Part shown: piece after piece, positions 144 to 42,329 of the stretch | Position numbering within the stretch: the stretch's first letter is position 1 | How the letters are laid out: each line of letters opens with the position of its first letter | Source: Candidatus Doudnabacteria bacterium RIFCSPHIGHO2_01_FULL_46_24 | GTDB taxonomy: Bacteria; Patescibacteriota; Doudnabacteria; UBA920; O2-02-FULL-48-8 | Reading direction: 5' to 3' | Assembly (NCBI GenBank): GCA_001777575.1 | Contig: MFEL01000007.1 | Span: 1-42,329, forward strand | Length of the DNA: 42,329 bases | Made by a program: the position numbers and the translations under genes | The notes under the pieces: model-generated | What the model saw: the letters and a program-made list of their open reading frames with translations, nothing else | The model's database searches: none | Told to the model about the DNA's origin: nothing

Positions 144-927
144 CAACTTACGGCTTCCTATGCGAGCAATCGCATAAGCAAAATCTAACTATATCGGTGA
201 ACTCCTAAAGTAACGTTTAGGACAATACCGAGGGAAGTTAGGCTAGAAGCGCGAGTATGTCTCAAACAAAACTTGGTAATCAGATTAAACGAGCGGCATT
301 AACGCCACAAGAAATTGAGGTTGTTATAGCTTGTTTGATCGGTGATGGCACAATTTGTAAGTCTGGCAACGGTAGATATTATCGACTCCGTATCGAGCAC
401 TCGGCTCGGCACAAAGAGTACGTTGAATGGAAGTACAATCTTTTGAAAAGATTATGTATTTCGCAAATTCAATATCTTCCATCCAACGATTCTTACAAAG
501 TAGGCACAGTAGGCCATCCAGAAATTACCACGTTAAGAAAAGTTTGGTATCCATCAGAAGTAAAACAAGTTGCTGCCAATTTCAGGCTAACGCCTTTGAT
601 GATAGCAATCTGGTTCATGGACGATGGCACTAAGCATCGAGACACTGTGGACATTTCAGTCCACAACTTCTCTGATGAAAGCATAGAGATCTTAAAGAAC
701 GAATTACTAAGATACGGCATTGAAACTACAGTTAATTCGGATTCAAAAGGTTCTCGGCTCTACATCATTAAGAGAATTTATCCGCTCTTTAAAGAACTTG
801 TTAAACCGTACATTGTAAAATGTATGGCATACAAGTTGCCCTAACCCCGTAGAGACTATACGTTAGCTCCAAGGAAACTTGGATGAAGATATAGTCCGGC
901 ACTCTTAGTAATAAGAGATTACAGTCG
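144..927 (+). mobile_element. Group I intron in 16S rRNA, inserted after the U1495 equivalent (E. coli numbering)
   Basis: 5' exon ends in U143 and the intron ends in G927. The guide sequence TTACG-GCTTC (148-157) pairs with both exons (P10 with CGTAA; P1 with GAAGT including the U.G pair). R element AGAGACTATA (851-860) and S element AAGATATAGTCC (886-897) form P7. Confidence 0.93.
257..844 (+). CDS. Intron-encoded LAGLIDADG homing endonuclease (two-motif type)
   Basis: Motifs IACLIGDG and IAIWFMDDG; the ORF loops out between the pairing arms GTTAGGC and GCCTAAC. Confidence 0.92.
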   Translation: MSQTKLGNQIKRAALTPQEIEVVIACLIGDGTICKSGNGRYYRLRIEHSARHKEYVEWKYNLLKRLCISQIQYLPSNDSYKVGTVGHPEITTLRKVWYPSEVKQVAANFRLTPLMIAIWFMDDGTKHRDTVDISVHNFSDESIEILKNELLRYGIETTVNSDSKGSRLYIIKRIYPLFKELVKPYIVKCMAYKLP

Positions 928-4601: not shown

Positions 4602-4784
4602 ATGAAGAAATGGCTGGCGGTGGGTCTGGGCATTGGAGTTGTGGCCGGCGGAATCTTTTTTGCGGCCAGAACATGGCAGTGGCTGGCGGCGAAGATCAGA
4701 AGGCCCTGGGACGAGGATTACGTTTCCGAAGAAACCCTATTCCGGCTGCGGCTATTGGACGATGATAAGCGCCGCGATATCTGA
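4602..4784 (+). CDS. Small single-TM protein
   Basis: SD AGGAGG; MKKWLAVGLGIGVVAGGIFF. Confidence 0.65.
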   Translation: MKKWLAVGLGIGVVAGGIFFAARTWQWLAAKIRRPWDEDYVSEETLFRLRLLDDDKRRDI

Positions 4785-4926
4785 AGGGCAGGATTTGCAA
4801 TTTAAGTCCTGTCCTTGCTCGTTGGGGCGATTTTTGTTAAAGTATTGAAGCAAAAATAGAGATTTAGCGTTTTGGTGCGGGGTCACCTGACCCAGAAGTA
4901 GAATTTTTATAATCTGCCTTGCTGAT

Positions 4927-4993
4927 GGGCGCGTAGCTCAGGCGGTTATCCCAGTAGTAGATGCTTCACATCACTACGGGACAGGGAGCGCTA
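4927..4993 (+). pseudogene. 5' half of a tRNA gene interrupted by a palindromic element
   Basis: Removing 4949-4985 restores GGGCGCGTAGCTCAGGCGGTTA|GAGCGCTA exactly. Confidence 0.75.
4949..4985 (-). repeat. CCTG-tailed REP-like palindrome
   Basis: TCCCAGTAGT...ACTACGGGA-CAGG hairpin with no target duplication. Confidence 0.7.
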
Positions 4994-5033
4994 CCCCGCA
5001 CCTGCTATAATTTATCAATTATTCCTTGCTGTT

Positions 5034-5110
5034 GGGCGACTAGCTCAGGTGGTTAGAGCGCGTCACTGATAATGACGAGGTCGATGGTTCGAGTCCATCG
5101 TCGCCCACCA
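5034..5110 (+). tRNA. tRNA-Ile(GAU)
   Basis: Complete cloverleaf, anticodon loop CTGATAA, encoded CCA; extended -10 TGCTATAAT at 5003-5011. Confidence 0.97.
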
Positions 5111-5130
5111 GCAGGGCATAATTATAGGGC

Positions 5131-5222
5131 AGCGCGCCTGCCCCGTACCAAACGCGTAGCGTTTTGGTGCGGGGTCACTGATAATGACGAGGTCGATGGT
5201 TCGAGTCCATCGTCGCCCACCA
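5131..5222 (+). pseudogene. Duplicated 3' part of tRNA-Ile interrupted by a palindromic element
   Basis: 5131-5136 plus 5175-5222 are identical to 5057-5110; the insert 5137-5174 is CCTG-CCCCGTACCAAA...TTTGGTGCGGGG. Confidence 0.85.
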
Positions 5223-5240
5223 AAATCGCAAAGCGATTTT

Positions 5241-5270
5241 GCCTCGAGCGAGCGTAGCGAGTCGAGAGGC
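5241..5270. repeat. REP-like palindrome left of the GIY-YIG gene (inverted partner at about 5458-5497)
   Basis: GCCTCGAGCGAGCGTAGCGAGTCGAGAGGC; its reverse complement resembles CCCCTCGGCTCG...CTCGCTTGGGG on the other side. Confidence 0.6.
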
Positions 5271-5275
5271 TAAAG

Positions 5276-5483
5276 ATGTGGTATTTTTACATAGCAAGGT
5301 GCATTGATAAAAGTTTATATTGCGGTATTAGCAGTAACACCTTGAACCGTATTATTCGCCATAATAATCGCCGAGGCGCAAAATGGTTTACGAAGCATGG
5401 AAGCACAAATCAAGCGTTGGTCGAGAATAAAAAAAGAAAAATTAATTAACGGAGAATACCCCTCGGCTCGACTGAAGGCTTAG
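5276..5483 (+). pseudogene. GIY-YIG nuclease (YhbQ/UPF0213-like), internally deleted and frameshifted
   Basis: MWYFYIARCIDKSLYCGIS...RIIRHN...GAKW, then EAQIKRWSRIKKEKLI in another frame from 5400. Confidence 0.8.
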
Positions 5484-5517
5484 TCTCGCTTGGGGTAAAA
5501 ATTTTTTCAAAATTTTT

Positions 5518-5757
5518 ATGAGATTTGTCTGGGGAATGGTTTGGGTAGTGATAGGGTTTTTGCTAATTAGATACAATTACCTGCTGGTGGGATTTTTTGG
5601 CCATGTGCCGTGGGCCGAACAGCACATTGGTGGTGGGGGGACATACACACTTTACAAAATCGTCGGAGTCATCGTCATTATCCTCGGCATGCTGTACGCC
5701 TTCAATGCTGTTGGCTTCCTTACCGGCCCAGCCGGCACCCTGTTTCCTTCGCAATAA
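5518..5757 (+). CDS. Small two-TM membrane protein
   Basis: Two hydrophobic segments around WAEQHIGGGGTY. Confidence 0.75.
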   Translation: MRFVWGMVWVVIGFLLIRYNYLLVGFFGHVPWAEQHIGGGGTYTLYKIVGVIVIILGMLYAFNAVGFLTGPAGTLFPSQ

Positions 5758-5763
5758 TTACTC

Positions 5764-6088
5764 GGGCCATTAGCATAGTGGTAGTGCACCCGGCCGCGCC
5801 CCGTAGTCAACCGTAGGTTGTACTATCGGGGTTTGCACCCCGTACTAAATTTTTGATATTTGTTTTGTTGGGCCGTTAGCTCATTTGGTAGAGCGCCACA
5901 TTTGCAATGTGGAGGTGACCGGTTCGAGCCCGGTACGGTCCACCAGGATAAGAATCAAAAATTAGTACGGGGCAAGTCCGGCGGGTGCGAGTTCGATTCT
6001 CGCACGGTCCACCAGGATAAGTGATTTTCAAAAAATTAGTACGGGGCAAGTCCGGTGGGTGCGAGTTCGATTCTCCCATGCTCCACCA
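5764..6088 (+). pseudogene. Disrupted outer tRNA-Ala(UGC): 5' half 5764-5793, loop remnant 5832-5837, two 3' halves 5977-6014 and 6051-6088
   Basis: Removing the palindromic inserts gives a cloverleaf with G3.U70, loop TTTGCAT, T-loop TTCGATT and ACCA. Confidence 0.7.
5870..5945 (+). tRNA. tRNA-Ala(UGC)
   Basis: Complete cloverleaf, G3.U70 pair, anticodon loop TTTGCAA, encoded CCA. Confidence 0.97.
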
Positions 6089-6145
6089 GAATTCAGCATA
6101 GATTTGAGAATCGCCGGCAAGGCGATTTTTTGATATGATTAGATC

Positions 6146-7066
6146 ATGGATACTCAAGAATATATTTGTGAGACTTGTGGAGGAAATCATCCCACCGATG
6201 CACATCAAGACAATCTTGAAAATCGTCCGGAAGTCTCCATAGATCGGTTACTATCGGATACTCCTGAATCTCGACCAGCTGAACAAAAAAGAGAGTTTTC
6301 TGTTGAAATTAAGGGACAAAAATTCGATTTTTTAGAAATCCAATCGGTTGAATCTTCAGATACCTTGCTTATACATCTTCCCGGGTTCGGGGAAGACGCC
6401 GAGCAATATGCCGAGCCCATGCACGTCTTAATGGAAAAGAGCTACCGTACCGTCGCCTTGAAAAGATACGGGGAAGTATTTTCGAGAGAACTCTTAGTAG
6501 AGGCGCTGGGACAAGTAATTCAATCAAGTGGAAAACAAAATACAGTTTTTCATGGAGATTCTTTTGGCGCGGCTGTTGTATACGACTTGATTAGTAACCC
6601 TGCCGATCGTGAATTTCTAAAAAGAAACAACGTAGTGGGTGCCATTTTAGAAGCACCTTTCTTGGATAAAAATCATCTTAAAGGCAAAGCACGATTAATT
6701 CCAGACGAAGTACTTATACGAGGAAGTATGCTGTTTGATAAAGTCAGGAATCTACGGTCCTTAACACCGCGACAGGACATGGTGGAGTTATCGCCTTCTG
6801 AAAAAAAGAGCATAATAAGGGAGGCGTTGCGAGAGAAAAAAGGCGAAAGAAAAATTGAGGTGCCAATTCACGTTGTTTTTGTTGAAGATGAGAGTCTGTC
6901 TGATAATGAGAAAATTATGAAGACTTTGCAGAGTCAAGGGCAGGAAGTTAGTTCCATTACGGTCATGAGCGCTGATGACAATAGACATCATATTGCAGAT
7001 GGGCAATATGAAGATATGTGGAGAGAAGAAAAAGAAGCGATAGACGTTTTCGTGAAGCCAGTTTAG
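6146..7066 (+). CDS. Alpha/beta-hydrolase-fold protein with an N-terminal CxxCxxxHxxxxH motif
   Basis: LIHLPGFG oxyanion region, GDSFG nucleophile elbow, and a late His (RHHI). Confidence 0.75.
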   Translation: MDTQEYICETCGGNHPTDAHQDNLENRPEVSIDRLLSDTPESRPAEQKREFSVEIKGQKFDFLEIQSVESSDTLLIHLPGFGEDAEQYAEPMHVLMEKSYRTVALKRYGEVFSRELLVEALGQVIQSSGKQNTVFHGDSFGAAVVYDLISNPADREFLKRNNVVGAILEAPFLDKNHLKGKARLIPDEVLIRGSMLFDKVRNLRSLTPRQDMVELSPSEKKSIIREALREKKGERKIEVPIHVVFVEDESLSDNEKIMKTLQSQGQEVSSITVMSADDNRHHIADGQYEDMWREEKEAIDVFVKPV

Positions 7067-7683: not shown

Positions 7684-8403
7684 ATGATTGTGAAAGCCAT
7701 TAGGACAAGAATTTTTTTGGAAGGCGAGAACCTGGTGCGTTTTATAACTAAGTACGTCCCGAAACTTCCTGACAGATCGATTTTGGTCGTGACTTCCAAA
7801 ATTGTCGCCCTGGCGGAAAAAAGGACGGCCAAATATGAAGGGCGGGCCGCGAAAGAAAAATTGATTCGCGCCGAAAGCGAATGGGCCATCCGCACCAAGT
7901 ACGTGTTTGCCACGCTCAAAGACGGGGCATTGGTGGCCAGCGCCGGCATCGATGAATCAAATGCCAACGGCAAGTTAATCATGCTGCCCAAGGACAGCAT
8001 GAGAACGGCTCAATATCTCCGCCGCAGATTGATGAAGGCGCATAGGCTAAATAAATTAGGAATTTTGATAACTGACAGCCGCGTGGCTCCGCTGCGCACG
8101 GGGGTCTTGGGCATCGCCATGGGTTATGCGGGATTCGGAGCGCTTCGCGATTACCGAGGAACAAAGGATATTTTTGGGCGCAAACTCAAGTACACTCAAA
8201 CCAATGTCGCTGATGGCTTGGCTACTGCCGCGACACTGGTCATGGGCGAAGGCAAGGAACAGACTCCGATAGCGGTGATTAAAAATGCTCCCGTTCAGTT
8301 CAAGAATAAGGTTATGAAGCACGAACTTCGTATTGATGTTAGGGATGACATGTACGGACCCCTGTTCAAATCTTTCCCAACCAGGGCGGGGAGAAAAAGT
8401 TGA
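7684..8403 (+). CDS. CofE-like gamma-glutamyl ligase, paralog 1
   Basis: VVTSKIVA, SAGIDESN, ITDS, PLRTG, and LVMGEG.EQTP motifs. Confidence 0.9.
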   Translation: MIVKAIRTRIFLEGENLVRFITKYVPKLPDRSILVVTSKIVALAEKRTAKYEGRAAKEKLIRAESEWAIRTKYVFATLKDGALVASAGIDESNANGKLIMLPKDSMRTAQYLRRRLMKAHRLNKLGILITDSRVAPLRTGVLGIAMGYAGFGALRDYRGTKDIFGRKLKYTQTNVADGLATAATLVMGEGKEQTPIAVIKNAPVQFKNKVMKHELRIDVRDDMYGPLFKSFPTRAGRKS

Positions 8404-31801: not shown

Positions 31802-33817
<2,016 letters not shown>

Positions 33818-33824
33818 AAAAGTT

Positions 33825-34532
33825 ATGTTAATTCGGCCGATTAAAACCAGAATTTTTAAAGCCAACAAGTCGTTGGATAAATTTATTTTGCGTTATCTGC
33901 CGAAAGTGCCGGATAGAAGCATAATTGTGATTACCTCTAAAATTGTTGCCTTGTCGCAAGGACGAGTGCTGCATTTGGCAGATAAAATCAAAGTAATCAA
34001 GCAGGAAAGCGACCAATACATTAAGACCAAATGGTGTTATTTGACCCTGAAGGACGGCCACTGGTGCGCCAACGCCGGGATTGATGAATCGAATGTGGAA
34101 AGCGGCGGGATTATTTTATGGCCCAAGGATTTGTTTAAAACTGCGGAAAAATTACGGGCAAGATTGTTGAAGAAATATAAAATTAAAAATTTGGGAATTC
34201 TGATTACTGACAGCCGGATTTTTCCACTTCGCGCCGGGGTCACGGGTGTGGCACTCGCTTATGCGGGGTTTAGCGGTTTGCGTGATTATATCGGAACCAA
34301 TGATCTATTCGGGCGCAAGCTAAAAATGACCAAAACCAACGTTGCCGACAGTTTGGCTTCGGCGGCAGTTTTAGCCATGGGGGAGGGCGCAGAAAGTCTT
34401 CCGCTTGCTCTAATCACGGATACGGTGGTAAAATTCAGAGTTAAAGTTGATCCGCGTGAGCTGGCAATTGATCCAAAGATTGATCTGTACCGGCCGTTAT
34501 TTGCGCGGTTGGACTCAAGGAGGAAGCGATGA
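33825..34532 (+). CDS. CofE-like gamma-glutamyl ligase, paralog 2
   Basis: ITSKIVA, NAGIDESN, ITDS, MGEG; clearly homologous to 7684-8403. Confidence 0.9.
   Translation: MLIRPIKTRIFKANKSLDKFILRYLPKVPDRSIIVITSKIVALSQGRVLHLADKIKVIKQESDQYIKTKWCYLTLKDGHWCANAGIDESNVESGGIILWPKDLFKTAEKLRARLLKKYKIKNLGILITDSRIFPLRAGVTGVALAYAGFSGLRDYIGTNDLFGRKLKMTKTNVADSLASAAVLAMGEGAESLPLALITDTVVKFRVKVDPRELAIDPKIDLYRPLFARLDSRRKR

Positions 34533-41151: not shown

Positions 41152-42329
<1,178 letters not shown>

Follow-up and report, generated by a model that had tools for sequence, protein, structure and literature searches.

The window analysed here is a stretch of 42,329 nucleotides (contig MFEL01000007.1) in which an intact tRNA-Ile gene is nested in the split remains of an older tRNA-Ile gene. 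The intact gene is part of a 182-nt insert (4992–5173), referred to below as the cassette, which lies between positions 27 and 28 of the outer tRNA-Ile gene and consists, in order, of a left arm, a -10-like box, a leader, the intact tRNA-Ile(GAT), a trailer and a right arm, both arms being GC-rich. The outer halves meet exactly at the 27|28 split, with no duplicated target bases. The original prediction, made from the sequence of this locus, had placed an intact, promoter-bearing copy inside the two halves of a disrupted tRNA-Ile gene; such an intact gene does lie there, and the inserted piece does carry an intact copy with a -10-like box. The features it had listed, namely the intact tRNA-Ile, the 49-nt and 22-nt repeats, the arms, the acceptor-extending flanks and the 5' part, were likewise recovered. 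Along the locus, the following elements can be distinguished:

4865–4892, plus strand: relic junction, an exact 22-nt right-arm copy followed by tRNA-Ile positions 28–35 with one extra C
4899–4926, plus strand: leader of the outer copy, holding TATAAT and homologous to the inner leader
4927–4948, plus strand: outer tRNA-Ile positions 1–21, with acceptor GGGCGCG and D-loop AGGCGGTTA
4949–4985, plus strand: 37-nt hairpin insert in the outer D-loop at site 21/22, with ends TCCC...GGGACAGG
4986–4991, plus strand: outer tRNA-Ile positions 22–27, GAGCGC
4992–5002, plus strand: cassette left end and left arm, TA followed by CCCCGCACC
5003–5033, plus strand: -10-like TGCTATAAT (5003–5011, by eye) and leader, of which 5017–5033 pairs with the trailer
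5034–5110, plus strand: intact inner tRNA-Ile(GAT), found by ARAGORN and by Rfam (tRNA, 69 bits)
5111–5140, plus strand: trailer, pairing with the leader up to 5123, with a small hairpin at about 5127–5143
5141–5174, plus strand: 34-nt hairpin, the right half of which (5166–5174) is the cassette right arm; base 5174 is shared with the 3' piece
5174–5222, plus strand: outer tRNA-Ile 3' part, positions 28–76 plus CCA, 49/49 identical to the inner gene
5223–5240, plus strand: hairpin immediately following the outer 3' part and, when judged by eye, resembling a terminator; in the scan it is listed for the minus strand only

The copies of the 49-nt exact direct repeat (5062–5110 and 5174–5222), which runs from the anticodon arm to the tRNA 3' end, lie 63 nt apart, and a further exact repeat of 22 nt links 4865–4886 to 5157–5178. 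The arm ACCCCGCACC at 4993–5002 is perfectly complementary to GGTGCGGGGT at 5166–5175 and also to 4874–4883, while the flanks that extend the inner acceptor stem (5017–5040 and 5100–5123, 24 nt each) are 88% complementary to each other. Folding of 4860–5225 gave -154.7 kcal/mol, compared with -120.5 ± 5.9 for shuffled sequences (z -5.8), and placed the inner cloverleaf at the tip of the extended stem. The 3' copy of the original prediction, "split by a palindrome", was loosely described, as the 34-nt hairpin, the right half of which is the arm, precedes the 3' copy. The "extended -10" can be seen by eye; however, as a two-hexamer promoter scan lists no entry at tRNA-Ile or tRNA-Ala, and hence none at TGCTATAAT, the box is known by inspection alone.

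When 4927–4948, 4986–4991 and 5174–5222 are joined, a tRNA-Ile(gat) cloverleaf results, the sole defects of which are two mismatches low in the acceptor stem, at 6-67 and 7-66. The outer pieces were joined by their coordinates, because ARAGORN in intron mode found no outer gene. Profiles of tRNA-Ile halves matched the 5' half at 4927–4948 weakly (E 0.01) and the 3' half at 5182–5222 strongly (E 1.7e-12). The outer leader and 5' part (4899–4948) are 78% identical to the corresponding inner sequence (5006–5055). In line with the repeated cycles of insertion that had been proposed, there are signs of more than one round: the outer gene has a cassette-type leader of its own, and at 4865–4892 a further right arm is followed by positions 28–35, the similarity stopping, by eye, at a 35/36 hot spot. 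At least two rounds may have taken place at this tRNA-Ile.

A second nested locus and its counterparts in relatives

The same nested design, absent from the original prediction, recurs 0.7 kb downstream at tRNA-Ala (5764–6092). In the list below and in the remaining text, numbers preceded by L denote loci from relatives.

5764–5793, plus strand: outer tRNA-Ala-type 5' part, of a type that is intact in L009 and L092
5794–5831, plus strand: 38-nt hairpin insert that separates the anticodon stem of the outer Ala gene from its loop
5832–5835, plus strand: outer anticodon-loop bases TTTG, split after G, as in L061
5836–5869, plus strand: left arm and leader of the tRNA-Ala cassette, with arm CCCCGTACTAAATTTTTGA at 5838–5856
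5870–5945, plus strand: intact inner tRNA-Ala(TGC), 93% identical to the tRNA-Ala of L003
5946–5972, plus strand: trailer and right arm TCAAAAATTAGTACGGGG, the arm (5955–5972) being complementary to 5838–5856
5973–6014, plus strand: outer Ala 3' part, copy 1, from anticodon-loop CAA through CCA
6015–6092, plus strand: tandem second trailer, right arm and outer 3' part (74-nt period, 92% identical), with a T-stem mismatch

At this locus the outer pieces represent the type that L009 and L092 carry intact, and the inner gene represents a different type, that of L003. The same two types occupy the same places in L061, where tRNA-Ala is likewise nested, with its split at the point seen in the window; the outer Ala pieces of these two loci differ from each other by compensatory changes in two stems. 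Folding of the tRNA-Ala region gave a z of -6.9 relative to shuffles, again with the inner tRNA at the tip of a long stem. Within the window, the cassette ends are alike (CCCCGCACC at Ile, CCCCGTAC at Ala), and the arm 8-mers CCCCGYAC and GTRCGGGG occur in 3 and 4 copies in the 42 kb, all within 4875–6046 (0.9 and 1.4 copies in shuffles).

Joining the outer Ala pieces yields an anticodon loop of 9 nt along with other mismatches, and ARAGORN wrongly assigns the joined sequence to tRNA-Cys. It reads the joined outer Ala relics as having the anticodon GCA (Cys), with a T·T pair closing the loop, while the alanine identity marks G3:U70 and A73 are kept in the relics of both the window (5764–6014) and L061. 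The Cys reading is probably an artefact of 2 extra nucleotides in a dead gene.

A scan for the 21-nt tRNA-Ile anticodon arm, with one genome per species, returned at least 119 loci, mostly from genomes or metagenome-assembled genomes (MAGs) of the Candidate Phyla Radiation (CPR; Patescibacteria), to which the host of the window belongs, as judged by its gene content and its relatives. Flanking sequence of up to 2 kb was in hand for 80 loci and of 300 nt for 39 loci (L099 among the latter). The original prediction had staked its reading on the presence of this architecture in relatives, and relatives do show the nested design, which is met again in many CPR bacteria, uncultured organisms with small genomes. 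For the profile count, 5 loci in which the tRNA-Ile is cut by the locus end were dropped; among the 114 listed loci that remained, half-tRNA-Ile profiles (E ≤ 0.01, annotated tRNAs masked) matched beside the intact gene in 13, with a 5' piece upstream and a 3' piece downstream both present in 5 of these. Two loci with a 5'-like match downstream were left out of this count. Exact pieces of at least 12 nt within 400 nt (tRNAs masked) accompany 18/105 tRNA-Ile and 12/56 tRNA-Ala genes of the listed loci, as well as 1/4 tRNA-Val(tac) and 1/3 tRNA-Phe genes, and none of the 16 other tRNA genes there. A looser count, admitting pieces of at least 10 nt within 800 nt, gave 27/114 listed loci, with about 0.1 chance matches expected per locus.

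The inner tRNA is flanked by inverted repeats of 10–20 bp, the sequence of which varies by lineage while their complementarity is kept. A complementarity score of at least 9 was reached by 10/19 nested or duplicated loci versus 6/90 others (shuffle mean 5.7). The density of GC-rich hairpins was 1.0 per kb inside versus 1.1 per kb outside tRNA neighbourhoods, and L035 is simply 62% GC. The left flanks of the insertions differ (CTGA, TTTG, GGTTA, GAGCGC, AGCT).

Individual loci illustrate the range of the design. In L099, tRNA-Ile is nested in its own copy, which is split at 35/36 and 13/14 and followed by a terminator hairpin; the two inserts have the same ends, and the outer pieces (along the gene, 1–13, 13–36 and 37–77) sum to a whole tRNA and are all 100% equal to the inner gene. 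The inner tRNA-Ile of L099 is identical to that of the window in unrelated surroundings, window positions 5027–5114 showing 98.9% identity over 88 nt, while flanks and outer alleles differ. L035 has inserts at 21/22, 35/36 and 55/56, and its outer pieces (1–22, 23–36, 37–56 and 57–77) form an exact sum and are 100% equal to the inner gene; in its relative L090, three outer pieces of the L035 type precede the locus end. Both share a 22-nt D-loop insert, the site and ends of which are those of the window hairpin 4949–4985. L086 has L035-type arms in reversed orientation, and in L057 the cassette is located in the D-loop. In L032, the outer gene joins to a perfect tRNA-Ile that differs from the inner gene in the acceptor, anticodon stem and T stem, and in L087 and L043 the outer gene is a different, fully pairing allele. 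As in the window, the outer pieces of L099, L035 and L032 abut without target duplication.

The window presumably stems from a metagenome assembly, and the exact repeats of 49 and 22 nt in this region are of a kind that could mislead an assembler. However, at least 13 genomes, assembled independently in different studies, show the same design with lineage-specific sequences, and it is present twice in the window with unrelated sequences. An assembly artefact of a repeated tRNA region is thus barely credible.

Several observations lie beside the nested design. The CPR-type tRNA-Ile anticodon arm also occurs in contigs labelled Gammaproteobacteria (L005, L008, L052, L066, L109) and Verrucomicrobiia (L099), in a Chlamydia trachomatis MAG (L095) and in several contigs labelled Actinomycetes or Acidimicrobiaceae; these could be mis-binned CPR contigs or reflect a shared allele. 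A Kerfeldbacteria MAG contig (L091) carries a tandem pair of tRNA-Ile(GAT) genes (143–219 and 272–349), 52 nt apart. The tRNA-Ala of L009, first taken as an intact reference for the outer type, has pieces of the same tRNA on both sides (a 5' piece of 13 nt and a 3' piece of 18 nt), each adjoining one arm of a 22-nt inverted repeat. Finally, inserts of about 100 nt separate the tRNA body from its last 16–20 nt in L036 (in an upstream tRNA-Ala copy) and L071 (after tRNA-Ile), these two sharing the motif GGGGTCGCGGAACGTGACC, and similar inserts follow tRNA-Ala in L042, L114, L076, L055 and L069.

Decay of the outer genes and origin of the inner genes

No copy other than the inner gene has a full cloverleaf, and an intact copy is always present, while the outer genes decay. 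In the window, the outer Ile gene has its acceptor mismatches and D-loop hairpin, and the outer Ala gene its 9-nt loop and the T-stem mismatch of the second 3' piece. In L090, outer positions 58–77 are missing, and a 16-nt hairpin is present that does not occur in the closely related L035. A GC hairpin replaces positions 28–35 in L001, L039 and L094, and the outer gene has suffered deletions or several inserts in L039, L001, L005, L057, L075 and L071. The outer pieces of L035 and L090 show zero changes, which is expected by chance, as there are only 5 differences between these loci over about 250 aligned bases.

This decay, together with the constant presence of an intact copy, argues against a functional interrupted gene. 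In such a gene, inserts would be removed from the RNA, in the manner of archaeal-style introns or of intervening sequences cut by RNase III, and the inner tRNA would be released from the "intron". The exact interruptions at D-, anticodon- and T-loops, closed by GC-rich helices, are in keeping with this idea, as are the outer genes of L032, L035 and L099, which join to perfect tRNAs, and the ability of bases 32–34 (CTG) to pair, by eye, with CAG at the insert 3' end in L035, L090 and L099. However, inspection of the junctions by eye revealed no canonical bulge-helix-bulge (3-nt bulges and a 4-bp helix): in L035 and L099 the helix spans 3 bp and the bulges measure 1 and 4 nt, and the window, L086 and L061 have no such motif. 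The splicing endonuclease is not known from bacteria. Given, in addition, the two acceptor mismatches and the 9-nt loop of the window genes, the missing outer 3' end of L090 and the deletions in L001, L039, L057, L005, L075 and L071, we consider a functional outer gene, whether interrupted or split, very improbable.

The reading we favour, to which we give an even chance, is that a cassette with palindromic arms and the cognate tRNA took the place of the resident gene, which has since been decaying and gathering small hairpin inserts. A cassette with a complete cognate tRNA gene would have inserted into a loop or stem of the resident gene. As the insertion would destroy an essential single-copy tRNA gene, only cassettes bearing the same tRNA would be tolerated, and for this reason Ile would be found in Ile and Ala in Ala. 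Transcription of the cassette would start from its own -10 box, as in the window, or from the resident promoter; with almost no leader, the cassettes of L061 and L086 must depend on the latter. Release of the inner tRNA would be the task of RNase P and RNase Z. The arms and the pairing of leader and trailer may close the insert into a stem, such that the inner cloverleaf is spared mispairing with its look-alike flanks. The dead outer gene may represent a safe landing place for small hairpin inserts, and its repeated 3' parts may undergo unequal recombination and gene conversion, from which the tandem Ala 3' pieces and the 49/49 identity at Ile would follow. Candidate routes for cassette entry include homing recombination via the conserved exon sequences, a transposase acting in trans and templated break repair.

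The original prediction had envisaged insertion first and restoration of an intact copy later. That the inserted cassette brought the intact gene along is the simpler reading, since inner and outer alleles differ in L032, L087 and L043 and in the tRNA-Ala of the window and L061. These foreign inner alleles speak for horizontal acquisition, as does the presence of an identical inner gene in unrelated surroundings. Loci with identical inner and outer sequences fit either recent within-population events or local duplication. We put forward only tentatively, and with more doubt than belief, that self-rescuing tRNA cassettes spread horizontally among CPR bacteria, knocking out the resident essential tRNA gene and supplying their own allele. 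If true, the spreading cassettes would correspond, in nature, to "cleave and rescue" gene drives; they would leave Russian-doll tRNA genes behind, and one unusual allele of the tRNA-Ile anticodon arm may have reached many CPR phyla with them.

Local duplicative repair would produce a similar arrangement without a mobile element. If the only tRNA-Ile gene broke in its anticodon region, or in a palindromic hairpin inserted at that place, the gap would be filled with a copy of promoter, leader, tRNA and trailer taken from the sister chromosome, and survivors would be cells that had regained a working gene. Such a course would agree with the outer pieces of L035, L090, L099, L005, L096 and L001, which match the inner gene at 100%, with the homology of inner and outer leaders in the window, with the hairpin-only disruptions just before position 36 in L001, L039 and L094, and with the absence of arm motifs elsewhere in the window. 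It is at odds, however, with the differing inner and outer alleles of L032, L087, L043, the window and the tRNA-Ala of the window and L061, as well as with the identical inner tRNA-Ile of the window and L099 in unrelated surroundings, and it leaves the long inverted repeats around the inner gene unexplained. We regard local repair as unlikely.

Replacement by a cassette, in turn, has to face several observations that speak against it. At the six loci with identical inner and outer pieces, local duplication explains the data equally well. All 7 arm motifs of the 42-kb window lie at the two tRNA loci, so that within these 42 kb there is no sign of a dispersed element family. The insertion sites vary, being 27/28 in the window, 31/32, 34/35 and 35/36 elsewhere and the D-loop in L057. 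In the window, the outer Ile 5' piece differs from the inner gene at 3/28 positions, while the 3' piece is identical to it; the two pieces being unlike, with the 5' piece not pairing with the 3' piece, an extra gene-conversion step must be assumed. The relic copy at 4865–4892 is explained only loosely by a cassette. No cassette-moving enzyme was identified in the window or at the nested loci. Moreover, the relatives were all chosen by one anticodon-arm sequence, and the frequencies given above are therefore valid for that subset only.

Nuclease and recombinase genes, and known systems

Pfam searches detected no integrase, recombinase or transposase among 47 window open reading frames (ORFs) or among 90 ORF pieces of at least 100 aa from 13 nested loci. 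Rfam returned no family matching inserts or arms in the window region and no match for the inserts of 16 loci, including the inserts of about 100 nt at Saccharibacteria loci (E ≤ 0.05). With the Rfam model Intron_gpI, no ribozyme core was found in window 4700–6300 at E ≤ 10; as a positive control, the same method found a group I intron in L005 (2435–2720, 65.5 bits). This intron lies inside a tRNA-like gene (2412–2770; tRNA-Phe in ARAGORN intron mode), 360 nt downstream of the nested tRNA-Ile of L005, in the 16S-23S spacer. Phage and plasmid collections searched with 4860–5260 gave matches to the tRNA body alone, with no record covering 80% of the query.

Two kinds of transposable element were compared with the nested loci. 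A miniature inverted-repeat (MITE) or palindromic transposable element would account for terminal inverted repeats, but there is no target-site duplication in the window, L099, L035 or L032, and the arm motifs are not dispersed (7/7 at the two tRNA loci in 42 kb). IS200/IS605-like elements have a fixed 4–5 nt target 5' of every insertion and TnpA/TnpB nearby; here, the left flanks differ among insertions, and no TnpA/TnpB Pfam match was obtained in the scanned ORFs.

A nuclease gene that the original prediction had not mentioned lies beside the nested tRNA-Ile:

5276–5483, plus strand: broken GIY-YIG nuclease gene, with an N-terminal part of 57 codons (5276–5449) and a C-terminal-like stretch in the +1 frame (5406–5483)

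Only the N-terminal half of the domain is in frame (PF01541, E 1.9e-8, profile positions 1–41 of 78); the C-terminal-like stretch in the +1 frame reads QIKRWSRIKKEKLI. The GIY-YIG ORF that occupies this position in L003 is interrupted by an in-frame stop, and the gene order tRNA-Ile, GIY-YIG, small membrane ORF, tRNA-Ala is common to the window, L061 and L003. In L001, a unit of GIY-YIG ORF, GC hairpin and tRNA-Ile positions 36–76 is found twice in tandem (302-nt period) directly after the intact tRNA-Ile, about 50–680 nt past the start of the search pattern, the ORF stop being the TAA of the anticodon-loop remnant.

A small GIY-YIG nuclease might drive homing, cutting uninterrupted tRNA-Ile or tRNA-Ala genes near the anticodon, upon which repair would copy in the cassette with the outer pieces as homology arms. 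The broken gene of the window starts 54 nt past the outer 3' piece, and GIY-YIG ORFs adjoin tRNA-Ile in L001 (two copies, in the tandem just described), L094, L109, L003 and L061. The exact insertion, at the same site 35/36 and with the same ends in L035, L090 and L099, is in line with homing, and co-conversion would give the pattern seen between the window and L061, which share junction-proximal outer sequence while their distal stems differ in a compensatory manner. Yet GIY-YIG is found beside tRNA-Ile in only 6/119 listed loci, plus the window, and L035, L032, L005, L057 and L043, nested loci with 2-kb flanks, are without it. In addition, L003 keeps the order tRNA-Ile, GIY-YIG, membrane ORF, tRNA-Ala with no nesting at all, and an identical inner gene would be a target too. 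We therefore consider GIY-YIG homing doubtful as the source of the nested loci. As a general driver, the nuclease is a weak candidate, given its scarcity among the listed loci and its absence from most nested loci with long flanks.

Integrases are said, after work by Williams in 2002, to prefer the anticodon loop or the T-loop of tRNA genes. The nested loci might be remnants of attachment sites, left when genomic islands with an integrase were lost from the tRNA gene that they had occupied. The 49-nt direct repeat of the window, which extends from the anticodon arm as far as the 3' end, is of the kind left by integrative elements in the extracts of PMC9897764, and L001, L068 and L088 have 3' pieces only. 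Against this, 5' pieces are present as well and meet the 3' pieces exactly, the window repeats are only 63 nt apart with no kb-scale element between them, the published islands in these extracts measure roughly 9–23 kb and more (PMC9897764), the ORFs scanned in the window and the 90 ORF pieces from 13 loci include no integrase or recombinase, and there are further small inserts in D- and T-loops. Island scars are, in our estimation, a most improbable origin. Integrative elements, as far as the same extracts describe them, do share with the loci reported here a partial tRNA copy beside an intact one, incoming DNA that supplies what keeps the tRNA functional, and the direct repeat just mentioned (PMC9897764). 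They differ in that the incoming piece here is only about 130–180 bp and holds a whole tRNA gene, that both halves of the old gene remain and meet exactly, with extra hairpin inserts, and that neither integrase nor island was found in what we scanned (PMC9897764).

The nested loci resemble archaeal disrupted tRNA genes, which may have multiple or non-canonical introns, as portrayed in the extracts of PMC10714607, in the exact interruptions of D-, anticodon- and T-loops and, where Thermoproteales mobile introns are included, in short GC-rich inserts with similar ends across the tRNAs of one genome. They differ from these archaeal genes (PMC10714607, same extracts) in the bacterial host, the nested intact copy, the decaying outer genes and the lack of a canonical bulge-helix-bulge. 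Work on short unclassified insertions in CPR rRNA genes (PMC11270868) concerns the same bacteria, short ORF-less inserts at the tops or bases of stem-loops in structural RNA genes, and LAGLIDADG and GIY-YIG genes around them; it deals with rRNA genes, its main text is without the word tRNA, and no nested replacement gene is described in it. With free-standing homing endonucleases of the phage T4 SegB type (PMC2330249, PMC13096335, extracts of both), the loci share GIY-YIG genes beside tRNA genes and, in L001, tandem amplification; unlike in these systems, the nuclease gene is absent from most nested loci, and cleavage or homing would here be hypothetical. Archaeal split tRNAs likewise have complementary arms after the 5' half and before the 3' half. 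Such split tRNAs are known from Nanoarchaeum. Group I introns in bacterial tRNAs also interrupt the gene in or near the anticodon loop; unlike there, no ribozyme core is detectable in the window region searched. Engineered "cleave and rescue" or "home and rescue" drives are synthetic and directed at protein-coding genes. By analogy, the nested loci would share their logic, in which an essential gene is disrupted and a working replacement carried, with drive behaviour here being hypothetical.

None of the known kinds compared has a complete replacement gene nested in the gene that it disrupts. We found no description of nested tRNA genes in CPR bacteria in the full-text literature searched, which excludes subscription journals and supplements, and the loci apparently represent an undescribed, recurrent variant of element insertion into tRNA genes. 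tRNA genes are usually held to be among the most stable, vertically inherited loci, and fragments of them are read as scars of integrase islands. Here, essential single-copy tRNA genes of small-genome bacteria appear to be repeatedly overwritten from within by tiny, replacement-bearing cassettes, and the CPR peculiarity of insertion-rich rRNA genes extends to tRNA genes. If the cassettes are mobile, they would offer a selfish element a new way to occupy an essential gene without splicing and provide a route for horizontal exchange of tRNA alleles; they would also be a source of annotation errors, such as pseudo-tRNAs, false "introns" and miscalled isotypes, as exemplified by the outer Ala relic that ARAGORN takes for tRNA-Cys.

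Genomic setting of the window

Positions 1–191 of the window are the final 191 nt of a bacterial 16S rRNA, and positions 41152–42329, at its other end, are the initial ~1.2 kb of a 23S rRNA. The rRNA operon is broken up, since about 41 kb of ordinary protein genes (type IV pilus, trpBA, DNA ligase and others) lie between the 3' end of the 16S and the 5' end of the 23S rRNA. Ile and Ala, the tRNAs usual in the spacer, are placed 4.8 kb past the 16S rRNA, and their intact copies, tRNA-Ile(GAT) and tRNA-Ala(TGC), are the sole tRNAs detected in the window by ARAGORN and Rfam. The window PilM is 48–50% identical to those of the nearest loci, L003, L061 and L009.

A LAGLIDADG_2 homing-endonuclease ORF (257–844, plus strand; Pfam E 5.8e-29) begins 66 nt past the 16S 3' end; it lies outside the rRNA gene and does not belong to an intron of the 16S rRNA. 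The window also contains a paralogous pair of F420-0:gamma-glutamyl ligase-like genes (7684–8403 and 33807–34532), and a G+C-rich block at 22–28 kb encodes two very large repeat proteins.

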